64,000 nt of DNA from Felixounavirus LF82P1. This document shows, piece after piece, positions 2,280-4,140 of the stretch. The stretch lies in sequence record OZ035762.1. One strand, given 5' to 3'. How positions within the stretch are numbered: position 1 is the stretch's first letter; each line of letters opens with the position of its first letter. Below the pieces are notes generated by a model that had not been told where the DNA came from, ran no database searches, and saw nothing but the letters and a program-made list of their open reading frames with translations. A program made the position numbers and the translations under genes.

Positions 2280-2760
2280 ATTACATTGAGTATAAAAATA
2301 AGCTATAACACCTGACTTGTCAACAGATTTTATAGCTTATTTGGCAGATTTTTTATAAGGCTACTGCCATCCTTCCATACCCTACCTTACCACACCCAAC
2401 CATACCTAACCAAACTACACCATACAATACCTTATTAAAAGACCCTCTTAAAGACCTTTTAAAAAGGTAAGTCTCATTTTAATGTAGCTGAGACTAACTA
2501 CCTGCACCGAACCTCACCTGACCTGACCGCGCCATACCTAACCGCGCTTTACCACACCTCACTTAAAAACCCTATGAGATACTCTATCGAATATAATTTA
2601 AAGACTCTTAAGTGATGTAATCGAATTTTTATGTAGCTCCGATTAACTACCCGCACTTTACCAAACCTCACCCTACCCTACCAGACCTTACCTAACCGCG
2701 CCGTACCTCATTAAAAGACCCTCTTAAAGACCTTTTAAAAAGGAGCCTCCGAAGAGGCTA
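2280..2760. repeat. intergenic repeat block: CA-rich (ACC/CTACC) tracts plus conserved hairpin unit AAAGACCTTTTAAAAAGGTAAGTCTCATTTTAATGTAGCTGAGACT
   Basis: Unit at about 2441-2510 nearly identical to 3961-4030; partial copies 2560-2650 and 2695-2760; inverted repeat AGTCTCA/TGAGACT. Confidence 0.6.
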
Positions 2761-2770
2761 CCTAGTCAAC

Positions 2771-3211
2771 TTAGAAAGGTTTTCTACGTTGCTTGTTAAT
2801 GTTAGCTTTCATAGCAGCTAAATGGTTTTGCTGTTCAATCAGTCGTGAACGTTCTTGATGACTAAGTGCCATAGTATTCACATTCTCAATCGCTTGAGTG
2901 GCTTGCTTTAAAGCACGACCAATCTTACCAGACATTTTACGTTTTGCAATAGTTGCTTGATGCTTAGGTTCAACCACACGATAACCAACACCCATTGAAG
3001 CAACCAGATAAATCTTCTCTTCTTTAAGAAGCTTTTCAATAAACTTCTCAAGTCGGTTTAGACGTGTAAGTGCATAAGCCTTCATTTCATCTTCGTACTT
3101 AACAATGTCACCTTGATAAGTTGGCTTCACAATACCTAAGAAGGTGTCCATCTCAGAATGTGATACAGTGTCACCGTAACTAAACTTTGCTGCTAATGCT
3201 TTTGTATTCAT
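2771..3211 (-). CDS. hypothetical protein
   Basis: ORF track 146 aa. Confidence 0.5.
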   Translation of the reverse strand: MNTKALAAKFSYGDTVSHSEMDTFLGIVKPTYQGDIVKYEDEMKAYALTRLNRLEKFIEKLLKEEKIYLVASMGVGYRVVEPKHQATIAKRKMSGKIGRALKQATQAIENVNTMALSHQERSRLIEQQNHLAAMKANINKQRRKPF

Positions 3212-3213
3212 AA

Positions 3214-3816
3214 TTAAACGTTACCTTCTGAAATAACTTCTACAGAAAAACGACCAAAGCGTGGACGCCAATCACCTACACCACAAAGGTTGCCAGCATT
3301 TTCCAGAACCATCAGGAGTTCCTCTCGGGTAATTTGCTCTTCATCGAACATCAAACCAAACTCTACAGACCAATCACGGAAGATTGGACGGTAGCTCATA
3401 ACTCGTGCTGTACCAATCTTAACAGATTTAGCATAGATAAAATCTGGATTCTTAGCAAGTTCTTGTGGGTTTGCTGGGCAGTTCTTGATAGTCATTGGGA
3501 AGACTACATCTGTCAGCATAATGGCTCGGTCAATTACCTTACCAAGTTTGTTGAGTTTTGCACCAGACTTGATACAAGCCTCAATCATCTCACCGTTCAT
3601 AACAAAACCTAGCTGCTCATCGTAGTAACAAGAAGTTACCAGTTGGCTTTCTGCTAAGAGCGCATAGTCTTCGTCAGTCTTTTTACGTTTACTGGACAGA
3701 GACTTGTGATATTTCGTCAGAGGGTTTAATGGGTCTGACAACGTATCGTTATGGCTCAAGAAAGGACGAGTACCAGTGATTTTGATATTTAACAGTTTCA
3801 TAGCATTTAGCTCCAC
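3214..3816 (-). CDS. hypothetical protein
   Basis: ORF track 200 aa. Confidence 0.5.
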
Positions 3817-3839
3817 ACTTTAGTTGATTGTTAAGTTGT

Positions 3840-4140
3840 TTGTAAAGAACCCTCAACAGAAGACTCTTTAGAAACTTGGTAGATTTTTAACGTGGATACT
3901 ACCATCCACCCATACCGTGCCACACCACACCGGACCGTACCATGCCCAACCCTACTACACCAGACCTTATTAAAAGACCCTCTCCAAAGACCTTTTAAAA
4001 AGGTAAGTCTCATTTTAATGTAGCTGAGACTAACTACCCATACATTACCGCACCATATTATACCCTACCCCACCATACTTCACTGCACCGAGCCACGCAT
4101 TACATCACTTAAAAACCCTTTTCAAAGACTCTTAAGTGAT
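3840..4140. repeat. second copy of CA-rich tract + hairpin unit repeat
   Basis: 3961-4030 near-identical to 2441-2510; flanking CCATACC/CTACC tracts. Confidence 0.6.

Follow-up and report, generated by a model that had tools for sequence, protein, structure and literature searches.

What purpose do the two blocks of ACC-type repeats in Felixounavirus LF82P1 serve? The window analyzed here is the whole stretch of 64,000 nucleotides (64 kb) from record OZ035762.1. The original prediction, made from these letters alone, had pointed to two intergenic regions of about 500 bp with tracts of such repeats and a near-identical unit, and had proposed that they are duplicated regulatory cassettes, recombination hotspots, or small-RNA genes. 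We scanned the window for ACC recurring every 5 nucleotides (at least five of eight units) and found five clusters in the entire 64 kb, at positions 2364-2438, 2491-2565, 2645-2719, 3904-3973, and 4037-4091. All five lie on the plus strand and inside the two intergenic regions; the same scan returned no GGT cluster with a 5-nucleotide period on the plus strand of the 64 kb. On the minus strand, which is the transcribed one, the tracts read GGT or GGC every 5 bases, and the GGT-to-GGT spacings form runs of 5. The tracts described in the original prediction are confirmed as real, and they are far beyond chance expectation. The genes around them are all encoded on the minus strand. The locus adjoins replication genes (ligase and polymerase).

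An Rfam covariance-model scan of positions 2200-4400 gave only four chance-level matches (15 to 22 bits versus gathering scores of 50 to 100), and a literature search on pentanucleotide periodicity returned nothing relevant. The Felix O1 genome paper (PMC3185647) gives other repeats and leaves these blocks unmentioned. The protein encoded between the blocks, in turn, matches PDB entry 36pp_D, "SUSP1 Vipr protein," with an E value of 1.7e-127 and ~97% identity over 195 residues. This match led us to two preprints, dated April to June 2026, on VIPR (Viral Interference Programmable Repeat), which is RNA-guided DNA silencing by phages (bioRxiv 10.64898/2026.04.26.720920, 10.64898/2026.04.26.720927). 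The original prediction had overlooked that the two genes bracketed by its blocks are the protein partners of the repeats.

According to these preprints, a VIPR locus consists of a ~20-kDa RAMP-like protein (Vipr), an accessory vap gene, and vrRNAs of ~100 nucleotides, each made up of 9 to 16 YNNGG repeats and, at the 3' end, an invariable tail, which contains a pseudoknot in the SUSP1 clade. Each repeat is bound by one Vipr protomer, and Vipr on RNA forms a helical filament; the protein holds the GGY bases in a flipped-out position, and base pairing with the target falls to the NN bases. Every third base of the DNA is skipped, either strand can be read without a PAM, and binding represses transcription; for described targets, the skipped base falls at the codon wobble position. 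The evidence from phage SUSP1 comprises small-RNA sequencing, co-purification, binding assays, GFP repression, defense against lambda, and cryo-EM structures, in which the RNA is SUSP1 vrRNA1. Among SUSP1-clade guides with assignable targets, 18 of 20 are aimed at a satellite element in E. coli genomes, and a protein of this satellite is 72% identical to SUSP1 YP_009199407.1, termed a baseplate hub (bioRxiv 10.64898/2026.04.26.720920, 10.64898/2026.04.26.720927).

The vipr gene of LF82P1 (3214-3801, minus strand) has its true start at the ATG at 3801 and encodes a RAMP-like RNA-binding protein of 195 amino acids, the one matched by PDB 36pp. In an alignment, those residues named by the structure preprint as RNA or DNA contacts that could be placed (H17, K33, E71, M72, R138, C173, D177, W178, and R179) are identical here. 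Because its identity to SUSP1 Vipr of ~97% exceeds the >90% by which the preprints delimit the SUSP1 clade, we place the locus in this clade. The accessory gene vap1 (2771-3211, minus strand; 146 amino acids) encodes a product identical at 145 of 146 residues to SUSP1 AVU07_agp038, encoded by the gene immediately downstream of vipr. From this position and the preprint's description of the locus, we infer that AVU07_agp038 is vap1. Searches of Pfam and the PDB gave no sequence match for the vap1 product; the preprints describe it as a predicted DNA-binding protein that enhances defense (bioRxiv 10.64898/2026.04.26.720920, 10.64898/2026.04.26.720927).

The association between repeat tracts and Vipr extends well beyond this genus. 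An exact-pattern scan of IMG/VR for (ACCNN)6ACC returned at least 120 loci; among those listed were, besides simple repeats, several dozen unrelated contigs with degenerate NNRCC tracts, often in arrays. We examined ~38 unrelated contigs from the matches listed, picked by DNA pattern alone. With these contigs oriented to read ACC, the flanking genes lay overwhelmingly on the opposite strand, and an open reading frame (ORF) of ~180 to 210 amino acids stood beside the tracts. A phmmer search with the 200-amino-acid ORF at 3214-3816 against all ORFs of those contigs identified homologues in more than 30 loci, and a Vipr homologue at E < 1e-5 was present in at least 31 loci besides the Felix-like ones among the matches listed. 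The tracts are therefore genetically linked to the Vipr family across very different phages. By tblastn, Vipr was found in 132 of 50,697 phage records; 117 of these are Ounavirinae at >90% identity, and the remaining 15, from phages of Pseudomonas, Gordonia, Mycobacterium, and Listonella, hold distant relatives.

On the minus strand, the elements of the LF82P1 locus follow one another in the order promoter, leader hairpin, vrRNA-2a, vrRNA-2b, vipr, vap1, terminator, vrRNA-1a, vrRNA-1b, vrRNA-1c, and terminal hairpin; two vrRNA genes are thus upstream and three downstream of vipr and vap1, all on the same strand. A putative sigma-70-type promoter at 4172-4199 (TTGACA, 16 nucleotides, TATACT; 11 of 12 consensus positions in a consensus scan) precedes the first vrRNA and vipr, and its sequence is identical in SUSP1 and Felix O1. 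The leader hairpin (CATCACTTAA...TTAAGTGATG; 4103-4141, minus strand) lies directly 5' of the vrRNA-2a repeat tract, and the same leader precedes SUSP1 vrRNA1. Between vap1 and the downstream vrRNA array is an intrinsic terminator (AGCCTC TTCG GAGGCT, then CCTTTTT; 2737-2759, minus strand) that is conserved in SUSP1, and the three downstream vrRNAs sit beyond it. The consensus scan gave no convincing sigma-70 promoter belonging to this array itself. In its leader, a weak TTAAAA-17-TTTAAT match can be seen by eye and is absent from the scan output. The array ends in a 19-bp inverted repeat followed by a T-run (2294-2342, minus strand), which overlaps the promoter of the next gene (2323-2295) in the repeat and promoter scans. 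The second intergenic region is smaller than the ~500 bp first described for both: a conserved 48-amino-acid ORF at 4206-4352 matches phrog_22006 (E value of 5.5e-33), which shortens the noncoding stretch to 3817-4205.

Each of the five vrRNAs, all on the minus strand, joins a tract of YNNGG units to a 3' tail that belongs to one of four sequence classes (A1, A2, B1, and B2). In the upstream block, vrRNA-2a (4002-4102) has 13 units (4102-4038; 8 perfect) and an A1 tail (4037-4002), and vrRNA-2b (3874-3969) has 12 units (3969-3910; 11 perfect) and a B1 tail (3909-3874) that is the same as the tail of SUSP1 vrRNA1. The downstream block holds vrRNA-1a (2615-2710; 12 units at 2710-2651, 11 perfect; A2 tail at 2650-2615), vrRNA-1b (2466-2561; 12 units at 2561-2502, 10 perfect; A1 tail at 2501-2466), and vrRNA-1c (2339-2434; 12 units at 2434-2375, 10 perfect; B2 tail at 2374-2339). 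The NN codes are AA GT TC GC GA AT GG AG AT AT GC AA AT for guide 2a, AA CT GT AG TG AT AC CC GT GT AC AT for guide 2b, GA AC GC TA AA CT AG AG GA TT AA GC for guide 1a, GA GT AA GC TA AT GC CA CA GA TC GC for guide 1b, and AA AT AT GT TT TA AT TG GT AA AG AT for guide 1c.

For statistics on units and tails, we extracted ~50 vrRNAs from 12 related genomes, giving 38 distinct tracts and 446 repeat units. Across the 446 units, position 1 is a pyrimidine in 100%, positions 2 and 3 have an entropy of 1.9 bits each, and positions 4 and 5 are G in 88% and 98%, respectively. An H-type pseudoknot is common to the four tail classes, with stems formed by alignment columns 1-4/15-18 and 7-13/26-32. Pairing in these stems extends to 91.6% of cells, and 9 of the 11 pairs show changes on both sides; a control in which the partners were slid by 1 to 3 columns left 28 to 38% paired.

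The unit in the original prediction corresponds to these tails. The hairpin noted there represents stem 2 in the A1 tail, and the tail of vrRNA-1b forms part of the unit. A repeat search with 2450-2518 as the reference recovered the near-identical copy at 90%, although at 3986-4054 and not at 3961-4030, and a further member at 2599-2667 (64%). The latter, which the original prediction had taken for degraded, represents the A2 tail, whose stem is compensated. The other supposed degraded copy, at 2695-2760, is no tail at all: it consists of a leader repeat (2705-2741) and the intrinsic terminator that follows the upstream gene (2759-2737). Two more tails, of a second sequence class, had been overlooked (3909-3874 and 2374-2339). 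Small-RNA genes on the minus strand proved to be the right choice among the functions first proposed, given YNNGG tracts and pseudoknot tails beside a vipr gene product 97% identical to that of SUSP1, for which the preprint presents small-RNA sequencing.

At what are these guides aimed? A BLAST search of the SUSP1 gene for YP_009199407.1 against 5426 complete E. coli genomes gave access to the satellites. Homologues are present in 474 of the 5426 genomes, all of them chromosomal. In strain PAR (NZ_CP012379), the homologue belongs to a ~12-kb island at ~1322-1334 kb, between yciI and tonB, with tape-measure, baseplate, and serine recombinase genes; eight further satellite regions, at several chromosomal sites, have a similar gene set. 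We scored the five guides against these nine sampled regions under the rule of a 1-nucleotide skip. Shuffled guides reach at most 19 matches (12 units) or 20 matches (13 units). Only a skip of 1 beats the shuffled guides, and skip lengths of 0, 2, and 3 stay at background level (17 to 18). As a positive control, SUSP1's own guides reach 21/24, 28/32, and 22/24 on the same satellite.

Three of the LF82P1 guides have predicted targets in these regions. Guide 2a matches the tape-measure gene at 23 of 26 positions in five satellites and at 22 of 26 in a sixth, with the skipped base at the wobble position (predicted target, AAAGTATCCGCTGAAATGGGAAGGATGAT). Guide 1b matches the large serine recombinase gene at 20 of 24 positions, with ten consecutive units perfect and, again, the skipped base at the wobble position; its predicted target at the satellite recombinase site is GTCAAAGCCTATATAGCGCATCAGGAATC. 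A 35-nucleotide query from this site has matches in 78 of the 5426 E. coli genomes (14 at ≥99% identity), and among the listed rows all lie in a recombinase gene. Guide 1a reaches 20/24 at the same unannotated gap in two satellites, 48 to 88 bp upstream of an annotated gene, and 19/24 at the equivalent position of a further three.

The other two guides have no match above background in the nine satellites. Guide 2b scores at best 19/24 in the nine satellites, in the tape-measure gene, where the first 7.5 units are perfect and mismatches follow; a BLAST query from this partial site found no full match in the 5426 E. coli genomes. Guide 1c has no convincing target in the nine satellites: its best score, 19/24 in the gene of an HTH protein, comes with scattered mismatches and a skipped base off the wobble position and is likely a chance match. 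Exact 1-nucleotide-skip patterns of guides 1a and 2b (units 2 to 12) had no match in IMG/VR viral contigs. BLAST of block 1 against the 5426 E. coli genomes gave no match either, and satellite vrRNA genes, if any, are thus undetectable by that search.

Within the 64-kb window, no guide has a self-target; the best scores (16 to 17 of 24 or 26) are background. The blocks had been suspected of being duplicated regulatory cassettes, and as meant this is wrong: the blocks do not control the genes next to them, and none of the five guides has a target in the window. Guides 1a, 1b, and 2a combine predicted natural targets at an NN match of at least 80% with an absence of self-targeting. Because three of the guides match the satellite element, we regard the locus as serving to attack an element that parasitizes or competes with the phage and not to regulate the phage's own genes.

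Together, these results indicate, with a probability of about 93%, that positions 2294-4199 (minus strand) hold a type II VIPR locus that is complete and belongs to the SUSP1 clade, with guides aimed at the E. coli satellite. The mechanism can be carried over because the components are near-identical to those of SUSP1, in which it was shown. Each vrRNA of ~100 nucleotides would comprise ~12 YNNGG repeats followed by the H-type pseudoknot tail, and Vipr would polymerize along the GGY motifs, one protomer per repeat, hiding the GGY bases. The exposed NN dinucleotides would then pair with double-stranded DNA, skipping every third base of the target, and the bound filament would block transcription. 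The predicted targets are parts of the ~12-kb satellite integrated in E. coli chromosomes: the genes for its integrase-type recombinase and its tape measure, and a single unannotated gap a short distance upstream of a gene. That the system functions in LF82P1 itself (expression, Vipr loading, and repression) we infer from the 97 to 99% identity to the SUSP1 components.

Could the blocks instead be the decaying, nonfunctional remains of a VIPR system, with the right ancestry and no present activity? Some features lean this way. Five of the 13 units of vrRNA-2a have imperfect GG motifs (8 perfect), guides 1c and 2b are without clear targets, and Felix O1 illustrates loss of the cassette with a solo degenerate vrRNA left behind. 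Indeed, vrRNA-2a could be decaying, though its target match is the best of the five. Against general decay, vipr and vap1 are intact and 97 to 99% identical to the experimentally active SUSP1 genes, the other four of the five tracts retain 10 or 11 perfect units out of 12, and three guides match extant satellites at ≥83%. We consider loss of activity very improbable.

Even less probable is that the tracts serve a ring-shaped protein as binding arrays through which, in the manner of TRAP, the flanking genes are attenuated at the level of transcription or translation. TRAP is a ring-shaped 11-mer RNA-binding protein that recognizes 11 (G/U)AG triplets at 5-nucleotide spacing, one per subunit, in Bacillus trp leader RNAs. 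The 5-nucleotide period, the ~12 units per tract, and the position of block 2 between the promoter and the next gene would all suit such attenuation; the conserved triplet, however, is GGY and not GAG or UAG, Vipr has been identified as the partner and assembles into a helical filament and not a ring, and three of the five tracts are downstream of the genes, past a terminator. Attenuation of this kind would also leave the NN matches to foreign DNA unexplained.

We give similarly little credence to a role as structural DNA or RNA with no guide function, whether as G-quadruplex or R-loop transcripts that prime replication or as C-rich sites for Rho loading, by which antisense transcription would be silenced. 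Such a role would suit a sense strand rich in G, with GG every 5 nucleotides, an antisense strand rich in C and poor in G, and the ligase and polymerase genes next to the locus. Yet it predicts neither hypervariable NN positions beside an invariant GGY nor a covarying pseudoknot tail, and neither the obligatory linkage to Vipr across unrelated phages nor the satellite matches under a single skip rule. An essential origin is in any case contradicted by Felix O1, which is without nearly all of the locus. Linkage to Vipr in unrelated phages and the PDB 36pp match led us to drop TRAP-like attenuation, Rho rut sites, and G-quadruplex or R-loop origins, and the same two grounds dispose of Chi-like or RecA-preferred GT-rich recombination sites, pac sites or iterons, and restriction or BREX motif decoys.

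A complete VIPR locus is not a constant feature of Felix-like phages. A 3-kb query around the locus is 99.7% identical to Felixounavirus LF82P9 and 92 to 96% identical to many Felix-like phages of E. coli, Salmonella, and Shigella. Within the genus the cassette is accessory, since Vipr occurs in 117 Ounavirinae records versus ~257 records that match the wider region. In Felix O1, which has lost the whole vipr-vap1 cassette between the repeated modules, what lies between the ligase gene and the gene that follows is limited to the promoter, the leader, and a single degenerate vrRNA with a B2 tail. Phage bumzen shares guides 2a and 2b with LF82P1, DaR-2019a shares guide 1a, and guides 1b and 1c are absent from the other 11 genomes compared. 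The tail class can differ between phages for one and the same guide, which is joined to an A2 tail in one of them and to a B2 tail in the other. A vrRNA with a helper-type tail also occurs in one satellite that has no vipr, and this satellite may borrow the Vipr of the helper.

A further reading, less likely than not, is that the leader and tail modules, which are conserved, together with the GGY scaffold substitute for CRISPR adaptation: homologous recombination between co-infecting Ounavirinae (and satellites) would exchange whole guide tracts among slots and among tail classes and would at times delete the cassette. We raise this on account of the guides shared with bumzen and DaR-2019a, the two guides that LF82P1 has to itself among the genomes compared, the guide found on both A2 and B2 tails, the solo vrRNA of Felix O1, and the satellite vrRNA without vipr. 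Recombination hotspots, as first proposed, are not the function of the blocks; recombination does stand as a side effect, visible in the mosaic of guides between related phages and in the loss of the vipr-vap1 cassette from Felix O1.

The VIPR system is already known from the two preprints, which are the source publications, and it was published with a phage whose Vipr is 97% identical; the window therefore provides a further member and not a discovery. The interest of the system itself lies in RNA-guided DNA binding by a gapped code, which may predate CRISPR. For genome records, the consequence is practical: the two "hypothetical proteins" and the unannotated "repeat_region" features in the many Felixounavirus records inspected can be labeled vipr, vap1, and vrRNAs. 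From the five guide codes one can also predict which satellite variants of E. coli would be silenced, which is relevant to the choice of Felix-like phages for therapy or biocontrol.

The closest known system is the type II VIPR of SUSP1, with which LF82P1 shares gene order and strand, Vipr (97% identical) and Vap1 (99% identical), the leader, terminator, and promoter sequences, the A1, B1, and B2 tails, YNNGG tracts of 12 units, and the same class of satellite targets. The two differ in the number of vrRNAs, of which LF82P1 has five (two upstream and three downstream) whereas SUSP1 has four (one upstream and three downstream) (bioRxiv 10.64898/2026.04.26.720920, 10.64898/2026.04.26.720927). 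LF82P1 also has the extra A2 tail class with its compensated stem, and all guide NN codes differ between the two phages. The likeness to TRAP sites is confined to some 11 to 12 triplets at 5-nucleotide spacing: the triplet is GGY and not (G/U)AG, the protein forms a filament and not a ring, and the spacer bases, irrelevant in TRAP sites, carry information here.

The locus is not a CRISPR array, by which we mean identical direct repeats of ~28 to 37 nucleotides separated by unique spacers, as a rule in the vicinity of cas genes. Its modules are 125 to 150 nucleotides apart, the variable part is itself periodic at 5 nucleotides, and searches of the neighboring proteins found no Cas domains. VIPR nevertheless resembles Class 1 CRISPR-Cas systems, in which Cas7-family RAMP proteins form filaments on crRNA. 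In both, a RAMP-fold protein polymerizes on the guide RNA and bases are flipped at regular intervals by a thumb; a conserved structured handle caps a variable guide, and rival genetic elements are targeted. Unlike Class 1 systems, VIPR has no repeat-spacer array, cas1/cas2, or other cas genes; its guide is noncontiguous, with 2 of every 5 RNA bases reading 2 of every 3 DNA bases; and it binds double-stranded DNA without a PAM and is encoded by a virulent phage.

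The guides of the VIPR locus (window 2339-4102) are mosaic among related phages (compared loci L001, L134, L136, and L084). One and the same NN code is found on differing tail classes and in differing slots of different genomes; in one example, a shared code carries an A2 tail at slot 3 of phage bumzen and a B2 tail at slot 5 of phage DaR-2019a. The joining of identical codes to different tails and slots across genomes points to an exchange of guide tracts by recombination.

The cassette itself is variably present. Felix O1 (NC_005282.1) lacks both vipr and vap1; the counterpart of window 2251-4205 is its positions 2412-2693. 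This interval, flanked by the DNA ligase gene and the gene that follows, retains only a promoter, a leader hairpin, and one vrRNA, which is degenerate and has 11 units and a B2 tail. The arrangement looks like the product of a deletion between repeated leader and tail modules. Since Vipr was found in 117 Ounavirinae records versus 257 records matching the region, the cassette appears to be missing from about half of the Felix-like records.

Immediately following the window's DNA ligase gene, a conserved 48-amino-acid open reading frame (ORF) (phrog_22006; 4206-4352, minus strand) is hydrophobic by eye, and its predicted product is probably a membrane protein; the bumzen annotation omits this ORF and leaves the corresponding stretch intergenic. 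Two further features lie elsewhere in the window. Positions 46109-47747 form 1.6 kb without ORFs that separates convergent gene blocks, is dense in short tandem repeats with a period of 10 to 12 bp, and contains a 62-bp tandem duplication; 10 of the window's 17 CTTGTTAR sites fall within 46632-47529. This region may serve as an origin, an iteron field, or an array of protein-binding sites. Twenty-five tRNA genes are clustered on the plus strand at 58181-63585; such a cluster is typical of Felix O1-like phages, and 22 tRNA genes have been reported for Felix O1.

One targeted satellite, in E. coli GN4751 (NZ_CM177078.1), carries a vrRNA of its own (5059-5123, minus strand), with 13 to 14 units and a B1-like pseudoknot tail that has a compensated stem 2. 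As tblastn detected no Vipr or Vap1 homologue in any of the nine sampled satellite regions, this vrRNA would have to rely on the Vipr of the helper phage. Its best matches (19 to 21 of 24) lie outside the islands, at REP-like sequences (CCTGATAAGCATAGCGCATCAGGC); chance may explain these matches.

Far larger arrays of degenerate NNRCC tracts occur in unrelated IMG/VR contigs (L100, L028, L012, L054, L011, and L022), each adjoined by a distant Vipr homologue. The L100 array has up to 17 to 18 tracts within about 1.2 kb, and that of L028 has nine tracts back-to-back, each offset by one base. These arrays probably represent other VIPR types, for which staggered or dense arrays are mentioned in the VIPR paper.
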